The notes under the pieces: generated by a model | The model's database searches: none | The model's input: the letters and a program-made list of their open reading frames with translations, nothing else | What the model was told of the DNA's origin: nothing | NCBI GenBank assembly: GCA_963783885.1 | Contig: CAWAPJ010000031.1 | Location: 1 to 48,539 of the forward strand | From: Waddliaceae bacterium | Lineage (GTDB): Bacteria; Chlamydiota; Chlamydiia; Chlamydiales; SLFE01 | Direction: 5' to 3' | DNA length: 48,539 bases | Position numbers and translations under genes: made by a program | Shown here: positions 19,468-41,234 of the stretch, piece after piece | How positions within the stretch are numbered: position 1 is the first letter of the stretch | How the letters are laid out: each line of letters opens with the position of its first letter

Positions 19468-20460
19468 ATGAAGATTCAGGGGTTTGCAGCAGAAAAATCG
19501 GCAGCTGAGCTGACACCTCTTGCTTATGATATTCCTGAGCTTGGGATCGAAGATGTTTTGATCGACATCACGCATTGCGGGATCTGTCACAGCGACATCC
19601 ATCTCATCGACGATGATTGGCAAATGAGCACATACCCTTTTATTCCCGGGCACGAAATCATCGGGATTGTGCGCGACGTTGGCAGCTTGTCATCGAATTT
19701 GTTTGTAGGTCAAAAAGTGGGGGTGGGATGGCAATGCGGGGCTTGTTTTTATTGCCAATGGTGCCTCAAGGGAATGGAAAATTTATGTGACCACCACCAG
19801 CCGACATGTGTTGGCAGGCATGGGGGGTATGCTGATGCGATTATAGTTGATAGCCGCTTTGCTTTTCCAATTCCCGATAATATGGATTCGGCAGGTACAG
19901 CTCCTCTTTTTTGCGGCGGAGCGACCGTTTATTCCGCTCTGAAAAACTCAGGCGTCAATTCCAGCTCGCGTGTTGGTGTTCTTGGTATTGGAGGTTTGGG
20001 ACATCTGGCTCTGCAGTTTGCAAAAGCAATGGGCGCTCATGTGACAGCTTTTTCTACATCATCTTCAAAAGAAAAAGAAGCTCTCTCACTCGGCGCCGAT
20101 CAATTTCTTCTCAGCCCGGATTCAAATCAGGAAGCATTCGATGTGATTCTCTCTACTGTGACTGCAAGTCTTGACTGGGAAAAATGGCTGTCACTTATTG
20201 GCCCCAGAGGAACTCTTTGTTTTGTAGGCGCTGCCCCGGGAACTATCGACGTGGGCATTCAGAGTCTGGTGTCTAAAGAGCGGAAGGTTTCGGGAAGTAT
20301 GATTGCAGACAGGCATACAATCTTAGAAATGCTAAGCTTAGCTTCGAGAAAAGATATCAAAGCAGTCGTGGAGGAGTATCCGCTAAAAGATGTGAACCAG
20401 GCAATTTCTCGTGTCAGGGAAAACAAAGTTCACTACCGAGCCGTTTTGACTATTTCGTGA
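19468..20460 (+). CDS. Zn-dependent NAD(P)H aldehyde reductase / cinnamyl alcohol dehydrogenase family (Ahr-like)
   Basis: CGICHSD, GHEIIG, CxxCxxC(x7)C and GIGGLGH motifs. Confidence 0.92.
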   Translation: MKIQGFAAEKSAAELTPLAYDIPELGIEDVLIDITHCGICHSDIHLIDDDWQMSTYPFIPGHEIIGIVRDVGSLSSNLFVGQKVGVGWQCGACFYCQWCLKGMENLCDHHQPTCVGRHGGYADAIIVDSRFAFPIPDNMDSAGTAPLFCGGATVYSALKNSGVNSSSRVGVLGIGGLGHLALQFAKAMGAHVTAFSTSSSKEKEALSLGADQFLLSPDSNQEAFDVILSTVTASLDWEKWLSLIGPRGTLCFVGAAPGTIDVGIQSLVSKERKVSGSMIADRHTILEMLSLASRKDIKAVVEEYPLKDVNQAISRVRENKVHYRAVLTIS

Positions 20461-22936
20461 TAATTCCTGCTTTTTTCAACATTTTTTTTGCACCGAATTC
20501 TGTTAACAAAAATTGGGTTCCTGTTATTGTCCAGGCCATTTCCACATGCTTATCATTAATCAGGTCATTCAGGCAGATATAAAGGTTGTCGTCTTCGATA
20601 ATTTGCCTGTTAACAGTTTTGCAAAAGTCGAAGATCAGTTCTTCGAGTTTCGAATACATGTGAAAGGTTACAGATACTTCTTGATCTAATACTCTAGACA
20701 AATTCTCATGAATGATTGTTTGAAGAATTTTGCTGACAGCCCCCTTTCCATTCGAATAGGAGTAGAGGGGTCCCTTTGACTTTAGTGGAAGACGATGAAA
20801 GGTGAAAGGTATTCCGTTTTCGTGTATAGAGGCTAGTGTTAGGATAAGAGTTTTATAAAATGTTTCATATTCCTGTTTTCTGAGAAAATCGATAATCCAT
20901 GAAAATTGGTAGGCGGTTATTGAAACGTCTTTTTGATTCGTTTGATCAAGAAGGTCAAATAATAACCTGTTTTCTCTTAATTTTTCTTTTATGAATGACA
21001 AAGGATAACCTAGCAGAGCTTGACATTGCTTATCGTCATAGGGGCAATCCTCAATCATGTTTTCAAGGACTTGAGAGTTGATTCCTTTGGGCAAGTGGTC
21101 CCTTGTCGGCGGTATAAAAACTTGTGGAAACGTCCCGGGAAACAACACGCATCTCTTCGGAGATCGAGTGAGTATTTTAGATGACTTGCCATTTATATTC
21201 TTAAGCGCCCTTCGAATTATGAGGGTATCCTCATCAAGATCAAAAAATTTTCTCCTATCGAGAATATATCGAGAAAGAAAATAAACTTCGTTTTTATTTT
21301 CCAAGGTTCCCAGTTTATAATTGCATATCGAAAGGAATTTATTATTGAATTCTTTCTGCGAAGAATTCCCGATTTGCAATGCCTCCTTAACTATCTGGAA
21401 AATGATTTTGAATTCCTTTTCGCCAAAATAAGCTGAAAGAAATGGGAGTGCATGTTGAAGAATTTCTTCATCAATATTTTGATCTTGTACAAATATCGAC
21501 AGTTTGAGTATATCCGCTATGCTCCAATGGGTCAAAGATGATGTTTGTAAAGAATTTGTCAGTTCCGTGATGTTGTTTCGTTTCTTTTTGCCTTCTATAG
21601 CTCTAAATTTTTCAAACAGTACTTTTATTGTATTCTTATTGTCTTCTTCCAATGTGATTATTTGATTTAAAAAGGGGGTTATTTCCCTGCGCTCTATTGG
21701 ATCTTTGAATTTTGCTAATGTTTTGAGAATAAATTTTATGTCATCAGCAGACATTTTCGGTGTTCTTAATGAATTTGCTAGTTCGACAATTTCCCTGCGC
21801 TCTATTGGATCTTTGAATTTTGCTAATGTTTTGAGAATAAATTTTATGTCATCAGCAGACATTTTCGGTGTTCTTAATGAATTTGCTAGTTCGACAATTT
21901 CCCTGCGCTCTATTGGATCTTTGAATTTTGCTAATGTTTTGAGAATAAATTTTATGTCATCAGCAGACATTTTTGGTGTTCTTAATGAATTTGCTAGTTC
22001 GACAATTTCCTGTCTTTTATGTCTATCTTTTATTTTTGCCAAAAATTTCATAATTCTTTGAAGAACAAAAAGATCCATTTCTGGTTTTTTTAAAGAAATG
22101 ACCTGATTTGTAATTTCATCAATTTCTGCTGGATCTTCGATATTTTGGAATGCTTGATGTATCATCCCTATTGCGGGCATTGCGGCAGTAGTAAGATCCG
22201 GTAGTTTCAAGGATTGAATCACTCTTATATATACCCTGCGTCTTGTGGAATCTTTGATTTCTGCTAAACCTTTAACAATCACTAAAACATGCCAATTATC
22301 CATTTTCGGTGTTTTGAATGAATTTGCTAGTTTGGCAATTTCTTGCCGCTTTTCTTTCTTGTCGATATTGACCAACTGCGTAAGAATTTTCACCAGGTGG
22401 CAATCCCACTTTTCTGTTATTTTTAGAAGATTGATAAGATCAATACATTCTTTTAGCTCTCCTGGATTATTGACTTTAGCTAATGCGTTAAGAAGTTCAA
22501 TTATGCTAGAGGCGCTAATCACTGGTGCGTTTAAAGAATTTATCAACGTGACTATTTCCTTTCTCAGCTCTGGATTTTTTATTGCTGACAAATGAGATAC
22601 TAGATTACCTAAATCAAAACCATTTGCTATTGGTCTTTTTAAAGATTTTGCCTGGTAGACAATTTCTTTATAATCATCTTTATCCAAAAGTGTTATGGCC
22701 GTTATGAGATGTGTAATATTTGACTCGGATTCGCTGTCATCGATGAGAATTTTTACCAAATCAATGAGTTCTTTGAACTTTTTATCGAATAGACTTTTCT
22801 CAACAGACGACATATTTGCAAGCTGTCCTGTGGAAATAAAGATTCTTGCGACTTTAGCTATTCTCTTTTCAACTTCATTGTTTGTTTTTAGTTGCTGAAC
22901 ACTTGTGTGATTGGGCCTTGTTCTTTCAACTTGCAT
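20450..22936 (-). CDS. 828-aa helical 36-residue repeat protein, candidate secreted effector
   Basis: Long AT-rich ORF with roughly a dozen degenerate 36-aa repeats, three of them identical. Confidence 0.8.
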   Translation of the reverse strand: MQVERTRPNHTSVQQLKTNNEVEKRIAKVARIFISTGQLANMSSVEKSLFDKKFKELIDLVKILIDDSESESNITHLITAITLLDKDDYKEIVYQAKSLKRPIANGFDLGNLVSHLSAIKNPELRKEIVTLINSLNAPVISASSIIELLNALAKVNNPGELKECIDLINLLKITEKWDCHLVKILTQLVNIDKKEKRQEIAKLANSFKTPKMDNWHVLVIVKGLAEIKDSTRRRVYIRVIQSLKLPDLTTAAMPAIGMIHQAFQNIEDPAEIDEITNQVISLKKPEMDLFVLQRIMKFLAKIKDRHKRQEIVELANSLRTPKMSADDIKFILKTLAKFKDPIERREIVELANSLRTPKMSADDIKFILKTLAKFKDPIERREIVELANSLRTPKMSADDIKFILKTLAKFKDPIERREITPFLNQIITLEEDNKNTIKVLFEKFRAIEGKKKRNNITELTNSLQTSSLTHWSIADILKLSIFVQDQNIDEEILQHALPFLSAYFGEKEFKIIFQIVKEALQIGNSSQKEFNNKFLSICNYKLGTLENKNEVYFLSRYILDRRKFFDLDEDTLIIRRALKNINGKSSKILTRSPKRCVLFPGTFPQVFIPPTRDHLPKGINSQVLENMIEDCPYDDKQCQALLGYPLSFIKEKLRENRLLFDLLDQTNQKDVSITAYQFSWIIDFLRKQEYETFYKTLILTLASIHENGIPFTFHRLPLKSKGPLYSYSNGKGAVSKILQTIIHENLSRVLDQEVSVTFHMYSKLEELIFDFCKTVNRQIIEDDNLYICLNDLINDKHVEMAWTITGTQFLLTEFGAKKMLKKAGIITK
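21681..22010. repeat. 108-bp tandem repeat, 3 copies (coding, 36 aa)
   Basis: Units start at 21681, 21789 and 21897; only one synonymous difference (ATTTTCGG vs ATTTTTGG). Confidence 0.97.
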
Positions 22937-23060
22937 ATGAATTCCTTTTTTTTAAAAAAAAATTACACCACAAGCGGCATTTAATAGCCAGATGTTAAGT
23001 TTTTATTGAATTGAATTAGTTAAAGGCGTAAGATCAATTGCTTATTTGGGGGAAGTTGAC

Positions 23061-24128
23061 ATGCTGCAGCCTTTTTTGGAACTGTTTCTTTCTTCGGGAT
23101 CAATCATCAGTCTCGATCATGAACGATTGCTTGTCGGATTCGGGGAAAGAAAATGGATGAAAGAGATTGAAGATGAATCGAGGCCCGCATTTTATTTTCC
23201 TGATTTTTTTTTGGAGACAAAGACTCCTTGGTTTCAACAGGAATTTTGCTTTGAAGTGAGCGCCGCTTCTTTTTTAGAAGAGCTTTGTCATAAAGCCGAC
23301 CATTCCTGTTCGCTTATGTGGACGCCCCCTGACTGCAGTATATTTCAGTGGGGCTTTAATGATCTTAAAAAGCGATTTTCTCAAGGCATTTTATCCAAAG
23401 GGGTCCCCTACGTTTTTGAAACGTCAAAAGATGCTGTCGGGCCTTCTCAGATTCATCATTTCCTTGTCAGCTTGCTTCGCTTTGCTTTGCTCCATCCTGT
23501 CTATTGCTATGGGTTTTGGGAGGATGGCGAAGGGATTCTCGGGGCTTCCCCCGAGCTGCTCTATAATGTGGAAAAAAACGAGAGTCCCAAACTGAAGACT
23601 GTTGCTTGCGCGGGAACTTTAGGACGGCAGGAAACGGAAGAGGCGTTTAAAAGCGATCCAAAAGAGCTCGATGAGCATGAGCGGGTGATTGAAGGGATTA
23701 AGGATTCGTTAACGCCGTTTGGTAAGGTGAGCATTGGAAAAATGGACATCCTTGATCTGGGATCTCTGGCGCATTTACTGACGCCTATTGAGGTTGAGTT
23801 GGAGGGGCGTTATGATTACGAGGTTGTTGTCAAAGCATTGCATCCAACTCCCGCTTTGGGAGCATTTCCCCGAAAGGAGGGGAGAAAGTGGCTGATGGAC
23901 TACCGCCAAAAAGCTGAAAGGGGGCGGTATGGAGCCCCTGTCGGATTCGTGCGGGGAGGGGGCGACGAAGCGGGATTTTATGTCGCGATACGAGGGATGC
24001 AATGGAATAAGGAGAGGATTTCCATCGGGGCCGGTTGCGGTGTGGTTCCGCAAAGCGATTTTGAGAGGGAATGGGAGGAGGTCGGTCGAAAGATTCGGTC
24101 GGTCAAGGAGGTCTTTTCGCTTGTTTGA
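23061..24128 (+). CDS. menF: Isochorismate synthase
   Basis: LGASPELL, ELDEHERV, LHPTPALG, VAIR and GAGCGVV chorismate-binding motifs; first gene of the men cluster. Confidence 0.88.
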   Translation: MLQPFLELFLSSGSIISLDHERLLVGFGERKWMKEIEDESRPAFYFPDFFLETKTPWFQQEFCFEVSAASFLEELCHKADHSCSLMWTPPDCSIFQWGFNDLKKRFSQGILSKGVPYVFETSKDAVGPSQIHHFLVSLLRFALLHPVYCYGFWEDGEGILGASPELLYNVEKNESPKLKTVACAGTLGRQETEEAFKSDPKELDEHERVIEGIKDSLTPFGKVSIGKMDILDLGSLAHLLTPIEVELEGRYDYEVVVKALHPTPALGAFPRKEGRKWLMDYRQKAERGRYGAPVGFVRGGGDEAGFYVAIRGMQWNKERISIGAGCGVVPQSDFEREWEEVGRKIRSVKEVFSLV

Positions 24129-25671
24129 ACCATGGCTGGGGCAAATTTTGCAGGAGATTGTTGGACGGGGTGTGGGAGAGTTTTGTATTTGCCCCGGCAA
24201 GCGGAATGCTCCATTGGTATGGGCCCTCGAGCAGTATCCGGAGCTTGAGCTGCATCATTGGTACGAAGAGAGGTCGGCGGCTTTTTTTGCCCTGGGAAGG
24301 GCGAGGGCAGCCGGCAGGCCTGTCGCTGTCGTGACCACAAGCGGAACCGCGGCTGGCGAGCTTCTTCCCGCCGCGATGGAAGCGAATTATTCAGGTGTTC
24401 CTTTGCTGTTGATAACGGCTGACCGGCCGAGGAGATTTCGAGGCTCCGGGGCTCCGCAATCGGCAAATCAGGTGGGTATTTACAGCAATTTTACCTCTTT
24501 TGAACAAGATTTGGAAGTAGGAGAGCTTTGCAGTTTGCAGCACTGGAATAAAAGAAATCCGGCCCACCTCAATATTTGTTTTGAAGAACCGCAATCGATA
24601 TTTGATTACCGACTTCCTCCTTTGGAGTTGGAAGCGGAAAGTTTCAGCGCGGAATTGCCTGTGAAGCGGGAGTCTTTGCGAAAGTTCCATTCTTTTTTGG
24701 AATCTGCAAAGCGCCTTCTCGTTGTCGTCGGGACGCTTGGAGAAGATGCCAGGCAACCCGTTTTGGATTTTCTGCTCAAATTGCAAGCCCCGGTCTATTG
24801 TGAAGCAGTGTCGGGATTAAGAGAGCGGGAAGAGTTAAGGCTTCTTAAGGTTCGAAGCACCGAAGGGCTGTGGGAGCAGCCGATTGATGCCCTGTTGCGC
24901 ATCGGGGGAGTGCCGACATTTCGGGGATGGCGCGACCTAGAGGACCTCGAAGGAAAAGTAGAGGTATGTTCAGTAAGCCAAGCGCCCTTTTCGGGCTTGA
25001 GCTGGGGTTCGGTGATTCATACGTCTTTAAAAGACTTTTTTCCAAAAGTTACAGTAGACAGAACCTTGAATTGGAGCCCCTGCTTTGCCGATCCTACTGA
25101 GCTGTTTGCTAAGTATCCGAAAGCCGAGCCGTCGTTAATCCATGAGCTGTCCAAAATCATTCCGCAAAACAGCAGGGTTTACCTTGGCAACAGCCTTCCG
25201 ATAAGGGAGTGGGATCTGGCAGCCTCAGGAAAAGCGGCAAGCGATGTCTGGGCAAGCAGGGGACTGAATGGAATTGATGGACAGCTGTCTACATTTTTCG
25301 GTCTTTGCGACCCTGAGAAGGAAAATTGGGCAATTATTGGCGATCTGACAGCCCTCTACGATCTTGCAAGCCCCTGGATTTTATCAAAAATGAGAGATTG
25401 CAGAATGAAAATTGTTGTGGTGAATAATGGTGGAGGGATGATCTTCTCTCGGCTCAAAATGGGGGAGGCGTTTCTCCATCGCCACAGCTATGACTTTTCC
25501 TATTTCGCAAAAATGTGGGGGCTTTGCTATGAGAAATGGAGTTCTGTCCCTAAAACAGTTGATTGCAAACCTCAGAGTCTCATTGAGTTGATCCCCGATG
25601 AACAGCAAACGGAAAAGTTTTGGAGGAGCTATCGAGATTTATGCGCTTCACGGCTTCTTGGGACGGCCTAG
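24121..25671 (+). CDS. menD: SEPHCHC synthase
   Basis: ICPGKRNAPL, ERSAAFFALG, TTSGTA, SRGLNGIDG and GDLT...NNGGG ThDP motifs; start moved to a TTG overlapping the menF stop. Confidence 0.93.
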   Translation: MFEPWLGQILQEIVGRGVGEFCICPGKRNAPLVWALEQYPELELHHWYEERSAAFFALGRARAAGRPVAVVTTSGTAAGELLPAAMEANYSGVPLLLITADRPRRFRGSGAPQSANQVGIYSNFTSFEQDLEVGELCSLQHWNKRNPAHLNICFEEPQSIFDYRLPPLELEAESFSAELPVKRESLRKFHSFLESAKRLLVVVGTLGEDARQPVLDFLLKLQAPVYCEAVSGLREREELRLLKVRSTEGLWEQPIDALLRIGGVPTFRGWRDLEDLEGKVEVCSVSQAPFSGLSWGSVIHTSLKDFFPKVTVDRTLNWSPCFADPTELFAKYPKAEPSLIHELSKIIPQNSRVYLGNSLPIREWDLAASGKAASDVWASRGLNGIDGQLSTFFGLCDPEKENWAIIGDLTALYDLASPWILSKMRDCRMKIVVVNNGGGMIFSRLKMGEAFLHRHSYDFSYFAKMWGLCYEKWSSVPKTVDCKPQSLIELIPDEQQTEKFWRSYRDLCASRLLGTA

Positions 25672-26308
25672 CGACTGGTCGTTTCTAGCGGGAGCTATTG
25701 CTTGCGATCTCTTTTCGGAAGAGTCGCTAGCGCATGAAACATTTACCGAATGGGCGAAATGGTTTAACAAGGAAACCGCCTCAGACGCGCCGAAACTGCT
25801 GATTGGCTACTCGCTTGGCGGCCGGCTGGCATTGCACGCTATCGTCGACAGTCCGGAAATGTGGCATGGGGCGGTGATCATTTCTGCTAATCCCGGATTG
25901 GTCTCGGGTAAAAAAGAGAGAATTGAAAAGGACGCCTTTTGGGCAAAGCGTTTTTCAAATGATTCTTGGGACTGCCTCTTGCAGGATTGGAATAGCCAGC
26001 AGATTTTCAAAAATGAACAGCATCATCCGATTCGCCGAGAATCGGATTTTAAACGAATGGGCTTGGCAAGAGCGCTGCGGCAATGGTCTCTGGGAAAGCA
26101 GGAAAATTTGCGCCGGACAATTTCCGAGCTAAATATCCCGCTCCTTTGGATATGTGGAGAGCATGATCAAAAACCCGGCTCTCTTTTTCATCCAAAATCA
26201 AAAATTTGCATTGCGCCGCAAGGGGGGCATCGCTTAGTATGGACACATCAACCATTGCTGAAAGAAGAAATTAAAAGATTTAAGGAGTCGTTATGTCAGC
26301 AGCATTGA
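25598..26308 (+). CDS. menH: SHCHC synthase (alpha/beta hydrolase)
   Basis: LHGFLG and GYSLGGRLA motifs; located between menD and menB. Confidence 0.88.
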
Positions 26309-27123
26309 CAGAAGAGTGGACTGAAGTCAAAACCTACAAAGATATCGAATTTCATCGCATGGGGGCAGTTGCGAAAATCACGATCAACCGTCCTGAGATT
26401 CACAACGCTTTTCGTCCCCTGACTGTCGATGAGATGCAGGATGCATTTGCCGAGTGCCGCTACGACGATTCAATCGGCGTTGTTATCCTCACAGGAAAGG
26501 GAGGCCGGGCATTCTGTTCGGGAGGGGATCAAAACATACGCCAGCATGCCGGTTATGTGGGTGGCGATGGGGTGCCGAGGCTCAATGTGCTCGATCTTCA
26601 AAAACAGATTAGGAATCTGCCAAAGCCTGTCATTGCAATGGTAGCCGGCTATGCCATCGGAGGGGGGCATGTCCTGCATGTCGTTTGCGATTTGACGATC
26701 GCAGCCGACAATGCGGTCTTCGGTCAGACTGGGCCGAAAGTCGGGTCCTTTGACGGAGGGCTGGGCAGCAGCTACCTCGCCCGTATCGTCGGCCAGAAGA
26801 AAGCTAGAGAGATCTGGTACCTGTGCCGGCAATATTCGGCCGCAGAGGCTCTTGAAATGGGCCTTGTCAACGCAGTTGTTCCTTTGGAAGATCTGGAAGA
26901 CGAAACGCTTAGATGGTGCGATGAAATCCTTCAGCATTCACCCATGGCTCTTCGTTGTTTGAAATCGGCGATGAACGCCGACTGCGATGGGCAGGCAGGG
27001 CTCATCGACCTGGCGGGTAATGCCACACTGCTTTATTACATGAGCGAAGAGGCGAAAGAGGGGCACTCGGCTTTTAAAGAAAAGCGGAAACCCGATTTTT
27101 CAAAATTTAAACGGTATCCTTAA
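26293..27123 (+). CDS. menB: 1,4-dihydroxy-2-naphthoyl-CoA synthase
   Basis: [19 protein letters not shown] and [14 protein letters not shown] motifs. Confidence 0.97.
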
Positions 27124-27126
27124 AAA

Positions 27127-28023
27127 ATGACCAAAGATATGGGAAAGATTCGCCACTGGATATTGGCTGTCCGGCCTAAGACGTTAACCGTGGCTTTTGT
27201 CTCAGTTCTGGCGGGAACCTCTCTAGCCTGGTCTGTGGGAACTGTCGATTGGCTCATTGCATTTTTGGCTCTCATTTGTTCGCTGCTTATACAGGCGGGA
27301 GCCAATCTGATCAATGACGCTGCTGACTTCAAAACAGGAGCCGACACCGAAGAGAGGATTGGATTTCCCCGGGCAGCTCAAATGGGGTGGCTGTCTTATG
27401 AGCAAGTCTATTATGGCGGGCTTGCAGCTTTTGGGCTGGCATTTTTTCTTGGCATCCCTCTTATCATTAAGGGGGGAGTTCTCATCCTATTTCTTCTGAT
27501 CGTGTCAATATTGTCCGGTTACGGCTATTCGGCGGGCCCCTATCCGCTCGCGTATCATGGTCTTGGCGAGCTTTTTGTGATGATCTTTTTTGGATATGTC
27601 TGTACATCGGTGCCTTATTATTTGCAAACAGGAGCGATAGATGGAAAAATTCTATTGGCCGCAACCCAAATCGGCCTCCTCTCGACACTCCTCATAGCCA
27701 TCAACAACACAAGGGATATTGAGGGGGATAAAAAAGCCAATAAAAAAACGCTGGCGGCCATTTATGGGCTGAGATTTGGAAAGATAGAGATATCATTCAC
27801 TTTGCTCATTCCATTTTTACTCAATTTATTATGGGTTATGATGAACTATCAGATTGCGGCATTTTTGCCCTTGAGCCTCTTGCCTTTCGCGACAATCATT
27901 GCCCAGGGTATCTGGAAGTTTAATCCCGGAAGAATATATAACGGCTATTTTGTTTTATCGGCGTTGCTTCATTTAGTTTTTGGTCTGCTGTTATCTTTGA
28001 GTTTTGTCCTTCAAGTGTTATGA
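27127..28023 (+). CDS. menA: DHNA polyprenyltransferase
   Basis: RPKTL, NLINDAADFKTGAD and NNTRDIEGDKKANKKTLA motifs. Confidence 0.95.
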   Translation: MTKDMGKIRHWILAVRPKTLTVAFVSVLAGTSLAWSVGTVDWLIAFLALICSLLIQAGANLINDAADFKTGADTEERIGFPRAAQMGWLSYEQVYYGGLAAFGLAFFLGIPLIIKGGVLILFLLIVSILSGYGYSAGPYPLAYHGLGELFVMIFFGYVCTSVPYYLQTGAIDGKILLAATQIGLLSTLLIAINNTRDIEGDKKANKKTLAAIYGLRFGKIEISFTLLIPFLLNLLWVMMNYQIAAFLPLSLLPFATIIAQGIWKFNPGRIYNGYFVLSALLHLVFGLLLSLSFVLQVL

Positions 28024-28895
28024 AAATCTTTTTCCATATCTATCAACTTTCTACAAGAAAGGGAGCGCTTTTAAAGGTTATCTTCAAAGGCGGTTTGACA
28101 GGCTATGCTGACTGCCATCCCTGGCCTGAGCTCGGAGATCTGCCTCTTAAAGAACAACTCAATTGTCTTGTTGACAGCAAAACGACAAAGCTTACAGAGC
28201 AGTCGCTCAAATTCGCAAGGATTGATGCCGAGGGGCGCTGTGAGAAAAAAAATTTGCTGCGTCCTCTTAAGATTCCTAAAAGTCACTATCTTTTAATGAA
28301 GCTCGGCAAGAACTCCCAAAAAGAGATTGAACAGGCATTCAGCGAAGGATTCGAGCATTTTAAGGTAAAATTAGGTGCAGATCTTGAGGAGGAGCTAACG
28401 ATTTTGAAACCAATGCTGAAGATTCCTCGTACACGCTGGCGCCTTGATTTCAACAATCAACTAAAACAACCGGCTTTATTGAAAACTTTAGAAAGCGATG
28501 TCATTGAATTTGTCGAAGATCCCTTTCCTTGTGATAAAAGATGGTATGATTTTCCCTTCGCGATTGCCTCTGATCGCCAGGAAAATCCTCCCGAAAATTC
28601 TTACAAATACAAAATCGTTAAACCTGCTATCGAGAAAATGATCGAAAGCTCAAAACCTCTTATTGTTACGTCGTATTTAGGTCATCCTATCGGACAGGCG
28701 GCAGATGCTTTTACCGCAGCAAGCCTCGCAAAGCAATGCGATGTTAGAGTGTGCGGGCTTTTGTCTCACAGAGTTTACACTCGCAATTTGTTCAGTGAGA
28801 GGCTATCATGGCGGGGAGCCGAATGGAAACATCCGGAAGGTACTGGATTTGGTTTTGATGATTTATTAGAGGGGATAAACTGGGTTAAGTTATGA
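28020..28895 (+). CDS. menC: o-succinylbenzoate synthase (divergent enolase superfamily)
   Basis: FKVKLG, RLDFN and FVEDP motifs; position in the men cluster. Confidence 0.85.
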   Translation: MKIFFHIYQLSTRKGALLKVIFKGGLTGYADCHPWPELGDLPLKEQLNCLVDSKTTKLTEQSLKFARIDAEGRCEKKNLLRPLKIPKSHYLLMKLGKNSQKEIEQAFSEGFEHFKVKLGADLEEELTILKPMLKIPRTRWRLDFNNQLKQPALLKTLESDVIEFVEDPFPCDKRWYDFPFAIASDRQENPPENSYKYKIVKPAIEKMIESSKPLIVTSYLGHPIGQAADAFTAASLAKQCDVRVCGLLSHRVYTRNLFSERLSWRGAEWKHPEGTGFGFDDLLEGINWVKL

Positions 28896-30014
28896 CTTTT
28901 GAATGGGACAGCGATCACACAATTGTCTTAATGAATCCTCGAATGCCCGGCAAGGATCTTTATACCCACAAACTTTACGACATTGGGCTTAAGGGTCATG
29001 TCTGGCTGGCAACTTCGGGCACGACCTCTATCAAATGGGTCGCTTTGTCCAAAGAGGCGATTCTCCACTCGGCACGGTCGGTCGGCAAGCACTTAGCTAT
29101 GTCTGCTGAAGATATCTGGGTGCACGCCCTTCCAGATTTTCATGTCGGGGGGCTTGCAATTTGGGCCAGAACCTTTGTTATGGACGCCAGAGTTGTCGAC
29201 TTTAAAGCCCAATCAAAATGGGATCCCAGAGCCTTTCGCGATTGTCTGGCATCGTCAAACGGCACGCTCACATCTCTTGTTCCGGCTCAACTCTACGATT
29301 TAGTCTGTCTTCAGCTCGAGGCTCCTCCGGCTCTTCGCGCAGTCCTTATCGGAGGAGGAAGGCTTGACTCATCTCTTTACTCCATGGCTGTGAATCTTGG
29401 ATGGAAATGCTTGCCGACTTATGGGATGACCGAAACAGCCTCGCAGGTAGCGACGGCAAAGCCGGAGAGTAAGGCCGATCTGGAGCTTCTGCCGCATGTG
29501 AAGGCAAAAATTGATGATGAAGGATTGATTTGTATAAAATCCCCATGTCTGCTGACATGTTATACAGAAATCGGCGTCAAAACGGTCATCACCGATCCTA
29601 AGAAAAATGGGTGGTTTTGCACCGAAGACGTGGGGACAATTAAAAATAACACCATCAAAGTGATGGGCCGCAAGTCTGATTTTATCAAAATTGGAGGAGA
29701 AAGCGTCTCGCTCACTCTTCTCGAAAGTCTGTTTGAAACCCTCAAGCTTGAATATGGCGTTACAGAAGATATGGCATTAGTGGCGTTTCCCAATGAGAGG
29801 CTCGGCCATGTAATTCACCTGGCAACGACCCATGAATCACTTAGGCTTTTAACGCTTGTCGAGGAATTTCAAAAAAGGGTTCATCCTTTTGAGAGGATCA
29901 GGCAAATTCGATCGGGTAGAGAAGATTCCAAGAGGACCGTTGAACAAGCTCATCAAGAGCGAGCTGCTTAATTTGATTTCTGATACTCATTCGGAGATTT
30001 TAAGTCCTTTGTAA
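28892..30014 (+). CDS. menE: o-succinylbenzoate-CoA ligase, with an apparent 1-nt frameshift near the 3' end (ORF as assembled ends at 29971)
   Basis: TSGTT, TYGMTETASQ, TEDVG and GRKSDFIKIGGE motifs; the IPRGPLNK (A10) motif is in a different frame after GGG at 29914-29916. Confidence 0.85.
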
Positions 30015-30232: not shown

Positions 30233-30964
30233 TTACTGTTTCTGCGCCAGAATAAGTGTGGCGATTCCGCCGAAAAGGGGCTTGATTGCCACATGTGAAA
30301 AGCCGGTTTTGACCAGATCGTCTGCTATGCTATTCGGCGAAACGAATTCATGTATGCTATTGCAAAGGTATTTGTAAGCTTCTTTATTGGAGGTGGCAAG
30401 TTTGCCGAGAAGGGGAAGGGCGGTAGTTAGGTAAACATGGTGACCGAAGCGAAGAAATTTGTTTTGCGGTCTTGTGAGCTCAAGAATACCGAAATGTCCT
30501 CCCGATTTAAGAACCCTTAATGTTTCCTGAAAACAGAGGGAAGGATTTTTGATATTACGTATGCCATAGGCTACAGTTGCGGCATCGATGAAATCATTGT
30601 CGAGAGGAATTGACTGAGCATCGGCCTCAAGATAGTGAATTTCGTGGCGGGCGATTTTTAAGTTACGAGCTTTTTCTTGCGCGCAAGAGAGCATTCCTTC
30701 GGAAAAATCGAGCATATAAGCAGTGACAGGATCTTTTCGACGTCGGAGATAAGGAAAGGCAATATCGCCTGTTCCACAGCAAAGATCCAGAATTGTTTTT
30801 GGTTTAAAGGGGGAATAAACATGCTTGATCAGTTCTCGATTCCACAATCGGTAAGTTTGAAACGAAAGAATGGCGTTGCCTCTTTCATAATTGACGGCAA
30901 TATCATTGAACAGTGCCTTGATGGACTCGGGATTTTGTTTGCCGTAGGGGAAAGTTCTACTCAT
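30233..30964 (-). CDS. ubiE: Demethylmenaquinone methyltransferase (UbiE/MenG)
   Basis: LDLCCGTGD, DFSEGML, YGIRN and AYKYLCNSI motifs; start moved to MSRTF. Confidence 0.95.
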   Translation of the reverse strand: MSRTFPYGKQNPESIKALFNDIAVNYERGNAILSFQTYRLWNRELIKHVYSPFKPKTILDLCCGTGDIAFPYLRRRKDPVTAYMLDFSEGMLSCAQEKARNLKIARHEIHYLEADAQSIPLDNDFIDAATVAYGIRNIKNPSLCFQETLRVLKSGGHFGILELTRPQNKFLRFGHHVYLTTALPLLGKLATSNKEAYKYLCNSIHEFVSPNSIADDLVKTGFSHVAIKPLFGGIATLILAQKQ

Positions 30965-31181
30965 CTTCAGGTTCGTTTTCTTTTTGTTTTTCTGTTTTTT
31001 TGCATATTTCACAGCTGATATCCCGGCCGCAACGTTCATCGCGGGCTTTTTCCGGGTCCATTCCGCAGGCTCCCCGAATGATACGTGCCTTGCCAGTGAG
31101 CAGAAAGCCGATGCCCAGCAATGCACAGGCGACTATGATCACTCCGAAAGCTAGTAAAATTGTGGTTACAATAGGATCCAT
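30957..31181 (-). CDS. Small single-TM Cys-rich protein (NqrM/DUF539-like)
   Basis: N-terminal TM helix followed by RGACG...C...CEIC; GAGAGG RBS; stop overlaps the ubiE start by 8 nt. Confidence 0.7.
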   Translation of the reverse strand: MDPIVTTILLAFGVIIVACALLGIGFLLTGKARIIRGACGMDPEKARDERCGRDISCEICKKTEKQKENEPEDE

Positions 31182-31213
31182 ATTAACCTCTCACACTTAT
31201 TATAGCATTTCTT

Positions 31214-33565
31214 TTAATCGTAGTCTACGTGGCAATTCGGGGTTAAGGGGATAGCTTGGCAGGTTAGAATTTTCCCCTTTTCCGCTTCGCTGTCGCTAAG
31301 AGCTTGATGCTTATTCATGATGATTTTTCCGGATTTGAGTTGGGCAATACAGGTGCTGCAGATGCCTTCTCTGCAGGAAAATGGGGGATTGAGATTTTCC
31401 CGGATGGCCGTATCGAGGATGCTTTCGTCCGGACGGCAGATAATTTGGGTCTCGCGGCCGTCAATTTTTACAGTCACCGTTTTTGTTTCCGCATCGGATG
31501 CTTCTGTTCCCTCGCCGACAATTAAAGGCTCGGCCCAAGCAGCCCCATGAACTTCCTCAAACGGTTCTGCGAGGGATGTAAATGTCTCTACATGGATTTT
31601 TTTCTCGGACACATTTTTTTGCTTGAGGGCCTCTTTTACCAAGGCAACCAGCCCTTGGGGGCCGCAGAGATAATACTCGGCATCGATCGGGCATGTTTGT
31701 AATATTTGATTGACTTTTTCGGCATCCAGCCGGCTGATAACATTTTTTCTGGACGAGTTGTTGACGGAGAGGCTGTGGATGACGTTAAATTTTTGACTGA
31801 ATGCCTCCTGCAGCTTTTCCAGGTCTTTGTCAAAAATGATCGAGTTGCTGTCATGATTGGCGAATATGAGTTTGACTTGTTCAACATGGGGTTCTTTTAG
31901 TATTGTGCGGATAAGGGACATGATCGGCGTGATGCCGCTTCCACCTGCAAACATAATGTAGCGCGCCGCTCCCGGCTTAGCTGTAAATTGTCCTGCCGGC
32001 GGGAGTACCAAGACTTCATCGTTTTCCTTGAGCTGATCGATCAGATCGTTGGAAATGAGACCTTGTTTGATTCTCTTGACAGTAATTCTCAGGTGCTTGT
32101 CTTCACCTGGATCGCTTGAGAGGGAATAGCAACGTTTATGCAGTTGTCCGGCATCCAGTAAGCGCAGCGTGATAAACTGTCCCGGTTTGTATTTGAATTC
32201 CTGCTTTAAATGATCGGGAATTTCGAAATAAAAAGAGGAGGCATCCTGTGTTTCCTGATGGACTTTTGCCACTTTTAGCATATAGTAGCGGTGCAGTTTG
32301 CCATAATTGGACTGATATTGAAACCATGAACCGTCCACATCCAGTTTTTGAGACCCGAGTGCTAGAATCTTCATGATTTTCGGAGCGATATATTTTTGGA
32401 CAAAAGGAAAGATGATACTTCTGATTTTCTTAAGAGCGGGATTATGAATGCCGAGGACGGCTTTTCCAAGCAGTCTTTGCATGCGGAAAATTTTCTTTGC
32501 TTCCGATTTTCTTTTTTGGACAAACTCGTTCAGATGAGAACTTCTGACAATTTCGTGATTATCTTTCAATGCTTGCATAATTAGAGGGTGGGCTAAGACA
32601 GCATCCTGAATGGCCAGCTTATTGCCTTGAGCTCCGATAGGCGATGCGATATGAGCGGCATCCCCAATAAGAAGCAGGCCGTCTTTGGTCCATTGTTTAG
32701 CAATGGCAATTTTAACATCGAGGTAAGAGCATTGATCGAAACTTAAAAGCACTTGCGGCAAAATGTCCTTAAGAATCGGCTTTGTCTCGATGAGGCGATT
32801 GCGGAAAGCTTCAATTCCCCCTTTTTTCAGCTCGGGATACGCTCCTTTCGGCAGAATCCAGCCGACCCGGATATGACCTTTTTCCTGAGGTATAAAGATG
32901 ACCATGCCATTTTTGGAGATCTCAAGGCCCAAATGATATTTTTCCGCTTCGACTGTCGGGAGATCAAACCAGACGACATCAAACTGATCTTTTGATTTGT
33001 GAAGTTCAATTCCTGCGGCGCTGCGAAGGGTCGAAAATCGCCCGTCGGCTGCGACAACAAGCCTGCTGCTTATGATTTGCTCCTCATTATCGATTTGTAC
33101 TTTCACGCCCGAAACCATTCCGCCCGCGAAGGCAAGATCTACTGCGGGAGTATTGCCAAGAAAGGTGAGATTGGGAAATTCTGACGCGAGTTGTATGATT
33201 TTTCTTAGAAACGGTCCTTGCTGCATGGAGAGGGCATAGTTATAGGGTTTGTCCAGAATGTCAAGGCCAAGCGTTAAAAGAGGACGCCCGCTGTCGGTGA
33301 TTTTAAATTCGTACATTTTTGAGTGATCAATCTCTAAAAGCTCATCCAAAATGCCCATTTGGTCTAAATATTTGATAACATCCGGCTGATAGGCCGGACC
33401 TCTGAATTCCCTCTCAAAAGATGTGTCTCGTTCAATCAGGAGGACATCGATTCCGCTCCTCCCCAATAGGTAGCTGAGAACAGCTCCGGCAGGACCGGCC
33501 CCGACAACAATGACATCGAATTTTGGTTTTGATGAGGAGCTTTTTTCAGTTATTTTCACTATCAT
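31214..33565 (-). CDS. Fusion of an FAD-dependent monooxygenase (UbiH/PHBH-like) with an FNR-type reductase and a 2Fe-2S ferredoxin
   Basis: N-half has GAGPAG, AADGRFS and LIGDAAH; C-half has RCYSLSS, GGSGITP, YLCGP and CREGICSTC...LTCQ. Confidence 0.88.
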   Translation of the reverse strand: MIVKITEKSSSSKPKFDVIVVGAGPAGAVLSYLLGRSGIDVLLIERDTSFEREFRGPAYQPDVIKYLDQMGILDELLEIDHSKMYEFKITDSGRPLLTLGLDILDKPYNYALSMQQGPFLRKIIQLASEFPNLTFLGNTPAVDLAFAGGMVSGVKVQIDNEEQIISSRLVVAADGRFSTLRSAAGIELHKSKDQFDVVWFDLPTVEAEKYHLGLEISKNGMVIFIPQEKGHIRVGWILPKGAYPELKKGGIEAFRNRLIETKPILKDILPQVLLSFDQCSYLDVKIAIAKQWTKDGLLLIGDAAHIASPIGAQGNKLAIQDAVLAHPLIMQALKDNHEIVRSSHLNEFVQKRKSEAKKIFRMQRLLGKAVLGIHNPALKKIRSIIFPFVQKYIAPKIMKILALGSQKLDVDGSWFQYQSNYGKLHRYYMLKVAKVHQETQDASSFYFEIPDHLKQEFKYKPGQFITLRLLDAGQLHKRCYSLSSDPGEDKHLRITVKRIKQGLISNDLIDQLKENDEVLVLPPAGQFTAKPGAARYIMFAGGSGITPIMSLIRTILKEPHVEQVKLIFANHDSNSIIFDKDLEKLQEAFSQKFNVIHSLSVNNSSRKNVISRLDAEKVNQILQTCPIDAEYYLCGPQGLVALVKEALKQKNVSEKKIHVETFTSLAEPFEEVHGAAWAEPLIVGEGTEASDAETKTVTVKIDGRETQIICRPDESILDTAIRENLNPPFSCREGICSTCIAQLKSGKIIMNKHQALSDSEAEKGKILTCQAIPLTPNCHVDYD

Positions 33566-35504
33566 CGACTTTGGCGGTTTTTGTTTTTGAGCTTTTGCCG
33601 CCTTTTTTTAATTCCATTTTTGGAGGGACAATATCGATCCAAATAGGAGAGCTCCATGCCATATGCCCGTCTTCTTGGGTCACTCGGAGATAGTAATAAG
33701 CAAAAGGGGGTTGTTTGTCCACTCCTTTGAGGGAATTTTTCTCCAATGGGGTCATGTCGTCATATTCGTAGTCGGAATAGTAATCCTCGGGATTTATCGT
33801 ATGGATTACATCTCCATTTCGAATAATCTCGATTTTATTGAGCTTTGCCGTTCCGGCGACATAGCCTGATATGTGCCTGTTAACTAGAAGCCCTGGTTTT
33901 TCCGATGTGTCGATTTCGGCTCCCATAGGCTCTCCGGCAATCGACAGTCCGACTATGATCCTTTCCCCTGTCGTCGCATAGCAACGGCGGTTGTAAAGGG
34001 CTTCGAAGATTGATTCTCTTGTATGGTTTTTGGTGAGCATTGCAGTTAACCCAGGAGGGTATTGCGTTTGTTCGTGTTCAAAAAAGTCGTAATAAATCCC
34101 GCGGTCATCAAGTCCGCCGGCCACAAATCCAAATCGACAGTTGTTATTGAGAGCATTTTGGATGGACCCTTCGGCTGATTCCACGACTCCATTTTTTTTG
34201 GAGGGGGTAATGGGACAGGGATTTCCTTCTTTTTTGGTGTTCTCGGACGACCCCCAGGCATTGTAGATCTCGACAACACGTTCAAATTCGGGATTCCAGT
34301 TTTTAAAATTGTAATGATATCCTTTTCCCATGGTAAAAGTCGGTATGGAGATCAGTTCTTTGGGGGAATAGGATTTATAGATTTTATTCAGGGAATTGTA
34401 TTTGGTGTCTTTTTTTCTCAAGATTTGTTTTTGGTCCTTGGCAAAGACAAACTGTCGAACTCCTTCCTTTCCCGGTTCTCCTTCCCACTGAAATCCCGGA
34501 AATGTTGAGAATCTGTCTTCCTCGTTGAATTCCTGGACATTACCTGCTATGAGTTTCCAAATTTCATTCGAAGTTTCCTCGGAATTCTGGCTGGGAGAGA
34601 CGCCGTAGAAGTTGTAGGCCAGCTCATCTCTGAAGTGCCTTAAGCAGCTTTCAATGTTTTCCGTCGAGTCGACCCTTTCGGATTCTCCATGGAGCGTGCC
34701 CCACAAAAGCTGTTCTTCAAGATCGGAAAAGCATTTCATGGGTGGAGAAAAATAAATATTTTGCGTGGACATGTTTTTTAGCTGCACAGTGTAGACGCCA
34801 GGATCATTAAAATAAAGATTGGGAAGGGTGATATAGCCGGTTTCGGGAATAAACAGCTTCCAGCTTAGGTTTTCCCTCAAGTGTTCGTGAGAGAGCTCAA
34901 TGAGCGTGTTTTCGCTATCCGTAGTGCTTGTCAGGTTCCCGAACTGGTCTTCAAAACGAATCACGACATCAAATCGTTTGTTTTTGGCAACGAAAGAGGG
35001 TGTAATGGCTTTGATATTATCAAGCTCGTTGCCTTTGATATCAATGGAAAAGACTTCAGGATCGGCGTATTTGCCTTTCCCGGTAGGATCAACATAGAGA
35101 TAAAAAGCCCTCCGCCTTTGCGCGTTGGCCTGAGCTTGACTCCCTTTTGGGTTCGCTCCCCACTTTTTCTCTTTAGGGTCTCCCATAAAGATAGTCACAG
35201 GCTCTCCTGCGGGAACTTTAGCGGGCAGTTTGAACAGGTATTTGGGAATGATATCATTAGCCCCGAAAACTTCTTCCGGAGCAAATGGTTTGCCATTTCC
35301 CGCTTTGGCGTATATGACATTTTCCCCAACTTTCATGTCTGTTACCGGGGCCTCCCAGTCGATCGGCCTTCCGTTGCTCATTATGTCGAACAGCAGCAGC
35401 GTTCCCTGAGGGAGGGCGGAAGAGGGGGTGAAAATAAATTTCCAGGTTCTAAATTCCCCGGCATAAGCAACAGGGGGTTCACAAGCACAAATCGACCGGC
35501 GCAT
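33546..35504 (-). CDS. DUF3604 / PHP-like domain conserved chlamydial protein (CT425-like)
   Basis: WGTLHGES, EIYNAWGSSE, GFVAGGLDDR, RRCYATTG and YYLRVTQEDGHMAWSSPIW motifs. Confidence 0.85.
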   Translation of the reverse strand: MRRSICACEPPVAYAGEFRTWKFIFTPSSALPQGTLLLFDIMSNGRPIDWEAPVTDMKVGENVIYAKAGNGKPFAPEEVFGANDIIPKYLFKLPAKVPAGEPVTIFMGDPKEKKWGANPKGSQAQANAQRRRAFYLYVDPTGKGKYADPEVFSIDIKGNELDNIKAITPSFVAKNKRFDVVIRFEDQFGNLTSTTDSENTLIELSHEHLRENLSWKLFIPETGYITLPNLYFNDPGVYTVQLKNMSTQNIYFSPPMKCFSDLEEQLLWGTLHGESERVDSTENIESCLRHFRDELAYNFYGVSPSQNSEETSNEIWKLIAGNVQEFNEEDRFSTFPGFQWEGEPGKEGVRQFVFAKDQKQILRKKDTKYNSLNKIYKSYSPKELISIPTFTMGKGYHYNFKNWNPEFERVVEIYNAWGSSENTKKEGNPCPITPSKKNGVVESAEGSIQNALNNNCRFGFVAGGLDDRGIYYDFFEHEQTQYPPGLTAMLTKNHTRESIFEALYNRRCYATTGERIIVGLSIAGEPMGAEIDTSEKPGLLVNRHISGYVAGTAKLNKIEIIRNGDVIHTINPEDYYSDYEYDDMTPLEKNSLKGVDKQPPFAYYYLRVTQEDGHMAWSSPIWIDIVPPKMELKKGGKSSKTKTAKVDDSENN

Positions 35505-40130: not shown

Positions 40131-41234
40131 ATGAATCCTACAGATAGCATTAATTCATATCCCGGCGTGCATCAAATTCATGACACAAATCAGGGCAGCC
40201 CTGGGGTCCAGAGGCAGGAAAGGCTGCCGAAAGACGTCTTGGAGGCCTTAGAGGATGATGATCTCGAACGGGCAATGGCCTTGCTTAGGCAGTATGAGAA
40301 TGAAGGCCTCGAAGGTGAGAATGAATTTTTGGACAAATTGATGAATATGCTCATGAGTGCGATAACATTTAAATTTATCGTCGCTAAGCCTGCCAAGGAA
40401 AGGGCAAAACAAGTCAAAAAACCTCAAAATCAGCGTACCAGCGTTAAAATGAGATCTTTGGCCAAAGGGTTCATCCGTATGCTTGCATCTCCGATGAGAG
40501 TTTTGGGAAAAGCCTTGTTTAAAGGGTGGAAAGCACTTTCCGGGATGAGCCGCGCCGCAAACCGTTATTTGATTATGCCTGCCGTTCGATTTGCAGCCGC
40601 TCCCTTTATCCAATCATACAAGGCGCTTAGCGAGCGTTTCGGCAACGCCCTCCGATTCGCAAAGGAAATTTCGGATCGAGTGAAAACGCGTTTCGAAGAA
40701 ATTCGAGAAAAAGCGTCGGAAAAGATCGAAAAAGCAGCCCATGAAATACGCGAACTAGCAAAGCCTATAAAAATGTGGCTGACCCATAAATTCAATGAAT
40801 TTGTCGAGAAGCAGCAATGGATTAAAGAAACTCTGGGGCAGCAAATCCAGCCAATCGTTCATGCCGCCCATATGCTCATAAATCTTATGTCGGTTGCGCT
40901 TGTCCCCTTTGCCTTCGGAGCCGGGCAAATGAGGAGAGGGGGCAAATTGATTAAAAAGGGGATGGATAAAGTTAAAGGGGCTTTTAACCGAGCGAAAAAT
41001 TGGATCAAAGGCAAATTCAAAAAAGGATATGGTTATATTCAAGCGGTTGTTCAAGCATGCGTTTTAGCGATCGAGCGCGTTTGGCTTTTGATTTTGGAAA
41101 AAGTGCTGCTATTTTTGAAAAAACTATGGTTATGGCTCTTAGCACCTTTTAAGCTTCTTGCACGGATTCTCATGGCGATTGCAAATCGTCTCAACAATTA
41201 TTTACAAAAATCCATACGTCGTCTATATAATTAA
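40131..41234 (+). CDS. Hypothetical protein with long basic amphipathic helices
   Basis: 367-aa ORF with its own promoter-like sequence; polar N-terminus followed by K/R-rich amphipathic helices. Confidence 0.7.
   Translation: MNPTDSINSYPGVHQIHDTNQGSPGVQRQERLPKDVLEALEDDDLERAMALLRQYENEGLEGENEFLDKLMNMLMSAITFKFIVAKPAKERAKQVKKPQNQRTSVKMRSLAKGFIRMLASPMRVLGKALFKGWKALSGMSRAANRYLIMPAVRFAAAPFIQSYKALSERFGNALRFAKEISDRVKTRFEEIREKASEKIEKAAHEIRELAKPIKMWLTHKFNEFVEKQQWIKETLGQQIQPIVHAAHMLINLMSVALVPFAFGAGQMRRGGKLIKKGMDKVKGAFNRAKNWIKGKFKKGYGYIQAVVQACVLAIERVWLLILEKVLLFLKKLWLWLLAPFKLLARILMAIANRLNNYLQKSIRRLYN

Follow-up and report, generated by a model that had tools for sequence, protein, structure and literature searches.

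A contig of 48,539 nucleotides (nt) from a Waddliaceae bacterium of the phylum Chlamydiota (GenBank assembly GCA_963783885.1, contig CAWAPJ010000031.1, positions 1 to 48,539 of the forward strand; the whole stretch is called the window below) carries on its minus strand, at 31214..33565, a gene for a 783-amino-acid (aa) protein in which a flavoprotein monooxygenase is fused to an iron-sulfur reductase. Upstream lies a gene for a DUF3604 protein; downstream follow a small open reading frame (ORF) and ubiE, on which a menaquinone operon converges. An earlier note, made from the sequence alone, had read the fused gene as a possible novel quinone-modifying enzyme. We find that its parts belong to known families and that their combination is a rare new architectural variant, whose nearest functional analogue is the COQ6-ferredoxin system.

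The fused gene

The gene encodes, in order, a class A flavoprotein monooxygenase, two linker helices, an FNR-type reductase and a plant-type [2Fe-2S] ferredoxin domain, as judged from the ORF, Pfam, NCBIfam, an alignment and an AlphaFold2 model. It is a single ORF with an ATG start and zero internal stops (ORF list and translation). Four Pfam domains, FAD_binding_3, FAD_binding_6, NAD_binding_1 and Fer2, each score above the curated cut-off, which bears out the uninterrupted 783-aa union of flavoprotein and reductase described in the earlier note.

The monooxygenase domain occupies residues 16-358 (32492..33520; PF01494 FAD_binding_3, 139.8 bits against a cut-off of 22, E 1.7e-40). According to DSSP on the model, two long helices (residues 342-371 and 376-403; 32357..32542) close the monooxygenase fold and lead to the reductase. 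The reductase consists of an FNR-type beta-barrel that binds flavin adenine dinucleotide (FAD; residues 430-527, 31985..32278; PF00970, 43 bits against a cut-off of 21.1) and an NAD(P)H-binding domain (residues 538-644, 31634..31954; PF00175, 58.8 bits). The [2Fe-2S] ferredoxin domain ends the chain (residues 699-773, 31247..31471; PF00111, 55.1 bits), so that the order is monooxygenase, FNR, Fer2. All of these features lie, like the gene, on the minus strand.

The query was aligned end to end with 22 other four-domain fused proteins from other assemblies, 39-86% identical to it. The monooxygenase motifs GAGPAG (22-27), D174-G175-R176 and G301-D302-A-A-H305...P309...D321 are invariant in 23/23 sequences; they are the class A fingerprints GxGxxG, DG and GD(AAH...P...G...D). 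Equally invariant in all 23 are R478, Y480 and S481 of the FNR motif R478-x-Y480-S481, the NAD(P)H-domain motifs G542-S543-G544...P547 and C634-G635-P636, and the cysteines C731, C736, C739 and C769, which are the RxYS flavin motif, the GxxGxxP and CGP nucleotide motifs and the four cluster ligands, respectively. Because every cofactor motif is kept over so wide a range of identity, we conclude that selection keeps the two halves functioning jointly.

The N-terminal half thus has the class A fingerprints, the Pfam model and a PHBH-type fold, and the C-terminal half has the architecture of an FNR-like reductase with a C-terminal plant-type [2Fe-2S] domain. Finer classification is looser. The best NCBIfam model for the N half is PRK06185, FAD-dependent oxidoreductase (NF004834), at 263.5 bits, below its cut-off of 500; the UbiH/UbiF/VisC/COQ6 model TIGR01988 gives 104.3 bits against a cut-off of 224.65, so the N half falls outside that family. 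For the C half it is PaaE, the 1,2-phenylacetyl-CoA epoxidase reductase (TIGR02160, 283.1 bits over residues 428-783, below its cut-off of 420.8), and no Paa oxygenase genes (the paaABCD partners) were found among the neighbouring genes scanned. Nor did Pfam reveal a Rieske or di-iron oxygenase gene among the window's neighbouring genes, in agreement with the earlier note.

Two further features were considered. A membrane anchor is rejected: no transmembrane segment is predicted, and the highest 19-residue Kyte-Doolittle mean, 1.71, falls on a Rossmann strand (residues 16-34). The protein does not score as an antibiotic-inactivating monooxygenase (Rox or Tet(X)-like): rif_monoox gives 71.5 against a cut-off of 800, and the Tet(50) and Tet(56) chains match at only E about 3e-8.

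Integrity of the fusion

Contigs from four public metagenome runs, recorded as soil and salt marsh (run X1 is possibly the window's own source sample), were compared with positions 30900-33700 and showed no letters inserted or deleted. They cover the linker region (about 32278-32488), e.g. record 3 of X1 (31805-32641) and record 9 of X2 (32152-32483), and the frameshift between the halves that the earlier note named as a possible refutation is absent from these contigs. Since 22 homologs from other assemblies align end to end and indel-free contigs cross the linker, the fusion is genuine and not an assembly artefact. The only recurrent difference, 32108 T>G in contigs of three runs, is synonymous (CCA->CCC, Pro486) and is probably strain variation.

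Structure and nearest relatives

An AlphaFold2 model of the whole chain, built from the 23 sequences, is one compact model with a mean pLDDT of 83.9 and a pTM of 0.86; its low-confidence stretches are residues 1-12 and 664-676. The top Foldseek matches in the PDB are structures of a Bacillus niacini flavin monooxygenase, a 2,6-dihydroxypyridine monooxygenase (8urc, 8uiu and 8urd; TMt 0.88-0.90, 30-31% identity), followed by PqsL, PnpA, MtmOIV, PHBH, halogenases and human squalene epoxidase, with TMt 0.77-0.83 for PqsL, PnpA and PHBH. For the C half, phthalate dioxygenase reductase (PDR; 2pia) is among the fold matches. Sequence search agrees on the closest solved relative, matching 8uiu over residues 15-414 at E 1.5e-53, the next PDB sequence matches being 1e-13 or weaker.

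The B. niacini enzyme shares the two C-terminal helices with the fusion but is a stand-alone 450-aa protein without reductase or ferredoxin domain, and its GD-motif region is unlike the H-I-A-S-P-x-G-x-x-G-N-K of the fusion family; in 8urd it has 2,6-dihydroxypyridine bound. The linker helices are found in unfused relatives as well, the alignment with 8uiu reaching residue 414 of the fusion and that with an unfused Paenibacillus protein (P0127) residue 416. A complex prediction of the N half (1-425) with the Fer2 domain (686-783) returned a score of 0.00 and a mark of 0.32 and was used neither for nor against contact between them.

Rarity and distribution

A profile of 23 sequences, run against 1.84 billion representative proteins, recovered nine full-length fused clusters and three partial ones; matches ranking below these are N halves that stand unfused, about 400-440 aa long, or C halves resembling PaaE. 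Of the Chlamydiota genomes scored, 7/400 carry a clear ortholog (E below 1e-130), namely four of family f1 (Waddliaceae, including the window's genome), two of f34 and one of f42; so do 3/120 Nitrospinota genomes. The family-specific motif GDxAHxASPxGxxGNKxAxxDA, back-translated, was found in 10 stretches among 185,579 species genomes and in 8 metagenome contigs. All 10 stretches are in Chlamydiota or Nitrospinota lineages, one record being titled Verrucomicrobiae; the pattern misses at least one carrier, G421, so these counts are slight underestimates. Locus scans with single proteins gave one close relative each.

Generic GAGPAG-type patterns derived from the alignment led to 80 monooxygenase loci, actinobacterial and other, and in none was a C half fused or adjacent. 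The ESM Atlas lists an Actinomycetota cluster of 804 aa with Fer2, NAD_binding_1 and FAD_binding_3 (score 0.93, 90 members). The 150 best matches among the representative proteins do not include it, and no fusion appeared in 401 Actinomycetota genomes at E <= 1e-75 with two candidates scored per genome. A second fusion of the same kind, distant or independent in origin, may exist.

The gene is an accessory one, scattered patchily over Chlamydiota and Nitrospinota. Every one of the family's four or five clades retains the fusion in a quick maximum-likelihood tree of 31 fused proteins (SH-aLRT support only; drawn with a midpoint root). A literature search that covered few subscription journals found no published fusion of a monooxygenase with FNR and Fer2 domains. 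Domains, alignment and rarity together support what the earlier note had called a self-sufficient redox enzyme of unusual architecture.

Gene neighbourhood in the window

The 5′ end of the fusion overlaps by 20 nt the ORF of the DUF3604 protein (P0002; 33546..35504, minus strand; PF12228), a Chlamydiota core gene product whose C end weakly resembles CehA/McbA metallohydrolases. The fusion stops 32 nt before a 74-aa ORF (30957..31181, minus strand), which itself overlaps by 8 nt the ATG (30964) of ubiE/menG (30233..30964, minus strand), encoding demethylmenaquinone methyltransferase (NF001244, 235.9 bits against a cut-off of 216; PF01209, 173.8 bits; start read from the sequence). The earlier note had placed and described the fused gene correctly. 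Its label 'NqrM-like' for the 74-aa ORF fared worse: the likeness, one predicted hydrophobic helix and a cysteine-rich tail C-x(11)-C-x(5)-C-x(2)-C, is one seen by eye. Up to E 10 the ORF matches nothing in Pfam or NCBIfam, and neither it nor two orthologs gives an NqrM hit. The ORF is conserved in loci L098, L099 and L100.

Convergent on ubiE, on the plus strand, is a classical menaquinone operon menF-menD-menH-menB-menA-menC-menE (23046..29971), recognised by the Pfam families Chorismate_bind, TPP_enzyme_N, hydrolase, ECH_1, UbiA, OSBS_N and AMP-binding. Shortly before the small ORF, covering the last fusion codons and the 32-nt gap, a consensus scan picked out a promoter-like sequence, TAGACT-17-TATAAT, whose second hexamer is preceded by TG (31199..31227, minus strand; 10/12 positions). 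As the region yields 17 such sites and shuffled sequence 10.1 +/- 3.5, this consensus match is a hint only.

The UbiA-family genes of the window's genome are MenA and a CyoE-type haem O synthase only, and MqnA/D was not found in this genome, which is 88.9% complete, so that a quinone substrate, if there is one, would be a naphthoquinone. The genome yielded no other intact FAD_binding_3 gene. A FAD_binding_3-like gene broken into two frames of 181 and 216 aa (contig C35, 2116-3642) perhaps represents a flavoprotein gene in decay. A run of five ORFs in one direction, of 294, 657, 198, 112 and 282 aa (C29, 70336-74983), resembles a cyoABCDE-type haem-copper quinol oxidase operon by ORF sizes and order, the last ORF alone being matched to a family (UbiA, PF01040, 199.5 bits). 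A desaturase-family gene adjoins a gene for a geranylgeranyl-reductase (GGR)/MenJ-like flavoprotein (C14, 12545-14378); a second desaturase lies at C10, 31712-32512, and a small Rieske protein at C2, 22329-22499. Within the window, the ORFs at 20450-22936 (minus strand, 828 aa) and 40131-41234 (plus strand, 367 aa) have no Pfam match at E <= 0.001.

The interval between DUF3604 and ubiE in Chlamydiota

The DUF3604 gene is present in 150/150 Chlamydiota genomes at 42-71% identity, usually with the quinone unit next on the same strand. Because it is a core gene, its overlap with the fusion is uninformative on function. Nor is the overlap conserved, the two genes being 133 nt apart in L099 and 467 nt apart in L124. 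We reject the DUF3604 protein as functional partner on these grounds and on its presence in 150/150 genomes against about 2% for the fusion.

In many Chlamydiota families DUF3604 and ubiE lie on the same strand with a gap of about 0.25 kb to 8 kb. We surveyed 15 such gaps in genomes that lack the fusion. The small ORF was found in 11/15 at E <= 2e-5 and marginally in 2 more, and for this reason it too is rejected as a specific partner of the fusion. Across many families (L128-L134, L138-L142) it encodes a cysteine-rich protein of 66-81 aa, with the single hydrophobic helix and the C-x(11)-C-x(5)-C-x(2)-C tail, directly upstream of ubiE or mqn genes, a candidate unrecognised accessory of menaquinone biosynthesis or of its methylation step. 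Genes for radical-SAM MqnC/E-like and VitK2_biosynth (MqnA/D) proteins lie between the small ORF and ubiE in 6/15 gaps, which confirms the earlier note's statement that chlamydiae carry futalosine genes in this interval.

Upstream of the small ORF the content differs from genome to genome: a beta-carbonic anhydrase gene in 4/15 gaps, on the opposite strand in three of the four, and in L140 a symporter, an ankyrin protein and an outer membrane protein. We conclude that the quinone unit was ancestrally made up of the small ORF, the mqn genes where present, then ubiE. The stretch from DUF3604 to the small ORF is a variable gap with unrelated genes, and it is there that the Waddliaceae fusion sits.

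Neighbourhoods of other fused genes

The order DUF3604, fusion, small ORF, ubiE, whole or in its readable part, holds at 9/9 readable loci of the Waddliaceae clade, i.e. the window, L098, L099, L100, L122, L123, L124, L126 and L127 (47-86% identity); a tenth, L120, does not extend far enough to be read. Wherever the contig reaches, the fusion-ubiE locus of this clade has the men operon convergent on it. All ubiE-linked loci group in this one clade of the tree.

Outside it, no quinone gene was found in the fetched flanks of any of ten loci (L101, L102, L103, L104, L109, L110, L115, L119, L121 and L125). In both genomes of family f34 an efflux-type major facilitator superfamily (MFS) gene lies directly upstream of the fusion or overlaps it (L101, 7728-11061; L103, 9438-12454). 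The pump of genome G314 is Tet(A)/(B)/(C)-like, of the DHA1 type with 12 transmembrane segments (TMS; 145.8 bits), and that of G341 is EmrB-like, of the DHA2 type with 14 TMS (188.8 bits). The three Nitrospinota loci have TPR proteins, methyltransferases and YjbQ in their flanks. Directly upstream of the fusion in L115, from a Chlamydiota MAG, stands a Nudix/NrtR-type regulator (NUDIX and NrtR_WHD, 131-832), with DUF2817 downstream; that a regulator of this kind accompanies a relative of a monooxygenase acting in nicotinate breakdown, the closest solved one, is possibly coincidence. The flanks of L102, L119, L121 and L125 contain nothing telling.

Menaquinone genes were present in all five other fusion-bearing genomes tested, as futalosine MqnA/D in G314, G341, G421 and G401 and as MenB in G334. 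The ubiE and mqn genes of those other carriers lie away from the fusion, in G314 and G341 on other contigs or more than 130 kb distant.

Proposed enzyme and electron path

The four domains, their cofactor motifs, the conservation of the fusion and the fold are established here. Our best reading, which we put at about an even chance, is that the protein is a self-sufficient hydroxylase of aromatics or phenols, a soluble flavoprotein monooxygenase of class A fed along a path from NAD(P)H through FAD to [2Fe-2S]. A hydride from NAD(P)H would pass to the C-terminal half's own FAD, and that FAD would hand single electrons to its [2Fe-2S] cluster. The cluster would then reduce the FAD of the N-terminal monooxygenase in two steps, and this reduced flavin would react with O2 and hydroxylate the substrate. 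We infer the direction and the target of the electron flow, from cluster to monooxygenase FAD.

Class A flavoprotein monooxygenases mostly take hydride directly from NAD(P)H, with known exceptions; squalene epoxidase and PqsL are enzymes of the class A fold that use external donors. The earlier note had argued from the premise that enzymes of this group need no iron-sulfur reductase, and this premise is contradicted by COQ6. Neither NADH nor NADPH reduced the FAD of purified yeast Coq6 (PMC4726752), and in an in vitro reconstitution from three separate proteins COQ6 turned over its substrate only with FDXR, FDX2 and NADPH (PMC7615680). A class A monooxygenase is there supplied from NAD(P)H through a flavoprotein reductase and [2Fe-2S] to its FAD, the path that we propose for the fusion. 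We accordingly propose the fusion as a putative covalent bacterial counterpart of the three-protein system of COQ6, ferredoxin reductase and [2Fe-2S] ferredoxin. The two differ in that the COQ6 system (FDXR/Arh1 and FDX2/Yah1) consists of three separate mitochondrial proteins rather than one chain, and in that its reductase is of the adrenodoxin-reductase type rather than the FNR/PaaE type.

Two other systems resemble the fusion in part. PaaE, KshB and PDR have FAD_binding_6 and NAD_binding_1 followed by a C-terminal plant-type Fer2, as does the C half; they are separate proteins that serve di-iron or Rieske oxygenases, whereas the sole on-chain partner here is a flavoprotein. The self-sufficient P450s of the CYP116B type (P450RhF) are oxygenases naturally fused to an NAD(P)H reductase and a [2Fe-2S] domain (for example PMC7260179). 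Theirs is a haem-thiolate P450 with an FMN-type PDR module, whereas the oxygenase here is a flavoprotein and is placed first.

Several observations weigh against a coupled enzyme of this kind. Unfused homologs of the N half are as close as the distant fused members, two Paenibacillus proteins (P0127, 414 aa, and P0130, 443 aa) both having 42% identity. Given these and the stand-alone solved relative, the monooxygenase fold of this family does not depend on a fused donor: it functions with no reductase attached, and NAD(P)H may still be its direct reductant. The two membrane fatty-acid desaturases and the small Rieske protein encoded elsewhere in the window's genome are conceivable ferredoxin-type clients of the C half. 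Finally, the G341 copy is in two frames, split near residue 502, and the frame of the G334 copy ends at 551-554 aa; therefore the fusion is not indispensable, or those copies are decaying or misassembled.

Alternative readings and substrate

The unfused homologs, the stand-alone relative, the desaturases and the Rieske protein all suit a protein with two independent activities, in which the monooxygenase takes NAD(P)H directly and the reductase either re-reduces an auto-oxidising hydroquinone product or feeds a separate di-iron or Rieske enzyme. A precedent for a class A monooxygenase fused to a product-reducing domain is 2-aminobenzoyl-CoA monooxygenase/reductase. We nonetheless think this arrangement unlikely. 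[2Fe-2S] modules of the PaaE/KshB type deliver electrons one at a time to a centre bound in a protein, and this chain offers no such centre other than the monooxygenase flavin; both halves stay intact in the fusion across 39-86% identity, which argues for direct coupling; the whole-chain pTM is 0.86; and no client oxygenase is conserved beside the gene at any of 19 loci. Far less probable still, to the point that we give it little credence, is that the N half is a GGR/MenJ-like reductase that saturates a menaquinone isoprene unit with ferredoxin-type electrons. MenJ does lie near menG in mycobacteria, archaeal GGR does require ferredoxin, the GG-red-SF model matches at 75 bits and 3oz2 is among the PDB matches. 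That score (TIGR02032), however, compares with a cut-off of 158.8 and is far under the PRK06185 score, a genuine hydroxylase leads the fold matches by far, and the genome has a separate GGR/MenJ-like gene (C14, 13386-14378), 39.6% identical to L101 18095-19138.

Two kinds of substrate come to mind, each put forward tentatively: a naphthoquinone-pathway compound in Waddliaceae, or an imported or toxic aromatic handled along with efflux. In the quinone case the enzyme, expressed with ubiE/menG, would hydroxylate the naphthoquinone ring, demethylmenaquinone or an intermediate, and a modified menaquinone would be made. Hydroxylation of prenylated quinone precursors is known from class A enzymes of the UbiH/Coq6 type, and the fusion lies on the same strand as the small ORF-ubiE pair, 32 nt upstream of it, and convergent with a full men operon, in an arrangement kept at all nine readable loci of the clade. 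The interval from DUF3604 to ubiE does collect quinone genes in other chlamydiae, the futalosine genes in 6/15, and all five other carriers tested make menaquinone by gene content. Yet the nine linked loci, being one clade, count as one event, the ten loci outside it lack a quinone gene in their flanks, and ubiE and mqn are distant from the fusion in G314 and G341. Futalosine genes sit between the small ORF and ubiE, while the fusion is upstream of the small ORF, where other families carry unrelated genes, and the promoter-like site stands ahead of that ORF. The score against the UbiH-family model is low, no O-methyltransferase or other follow-up gene is nearby, and co-occurrence says little when ubiE is found in 133/150 Chlamydiota. 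We thus regard the quinone case as improbable. Less probable again is its fullest form, a single-chain COQ6-type system recruited to the Waddliaceae menaquinone unit that would hydroxylate the naphthoquinone head group or a precursor to give a new O2-dependent hydroxylated menaquinone, with the conserved small cysteine-rich membrane protein upstream of ubiE as a further component of the quinone pathway.

The other kind of substrate would make the fusion a detoxifying hydroxylase of imported or environmental aromatics (a xenobiotic, an antibiotic, or a host or prey metabolite) beside an efflux pump, encoded by an accessory gene that lineages living in the same habitat have exchanged. Such a role fits the MFS genes of two different subfamilies next to the fusion in both f34 genomes, the patchy distribution in Chlamydiota and Nitrospinota, the mere 10 loci that the family-specific motif found among species genomes, the closest solved relative, which is a catabolic hydroxylase of a small N-heteroaromatic, and the Nudix/NrtR-type regulator directly upstream in L115. 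It is nevertheless doubtful: a pump adjoins the gene at only 2/19 readable loci, the MFS scores fall far short of the cut-offs for resistance genes (475 and 230.2), the rifampin monooxygenase and tetracycline destructase matches are as poor as given above, and no substrate can be named.

The quinone-modifying inference of the earlier note is accordingly cut back, since the linkage to ubiE is limited to one clade. The ubiE and men linkage stands at 9/9 loci there; against it are the 0/10 elsewhere, the universal DUF3604 gene, the greater age of the small ORF-ubiE unit and the promoter-like site in between. A novel quinone-modifying enzyme is a weakly supported minority hypothesis, and a naphthoquinone-pathway role in Waddliaceae is the less likely half of our best reading. 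The note had also allowed that fused homologs might prove common, characterised and unlinked to quinone genes: they turned out neither common nor characterised, and outside Waddliaceae they are largely unlinked.

Implications

If our reading of the electron path is right, this one-chain enzyme would be a tractable model for the reduction of a monooxygenase flavin by an iron-sulfur cluster in one-electron steps, and a ready-made self-sufficient hydroxylase for biocatalysis. Should the quinone case prove true, it would point to a modified respiratory quinone in these chlamydiae. In the genomes sampled, the fusion marks an oxygen-dependent accessory function in Chlamydiota (7/400) and Nitrospinota (3/120).

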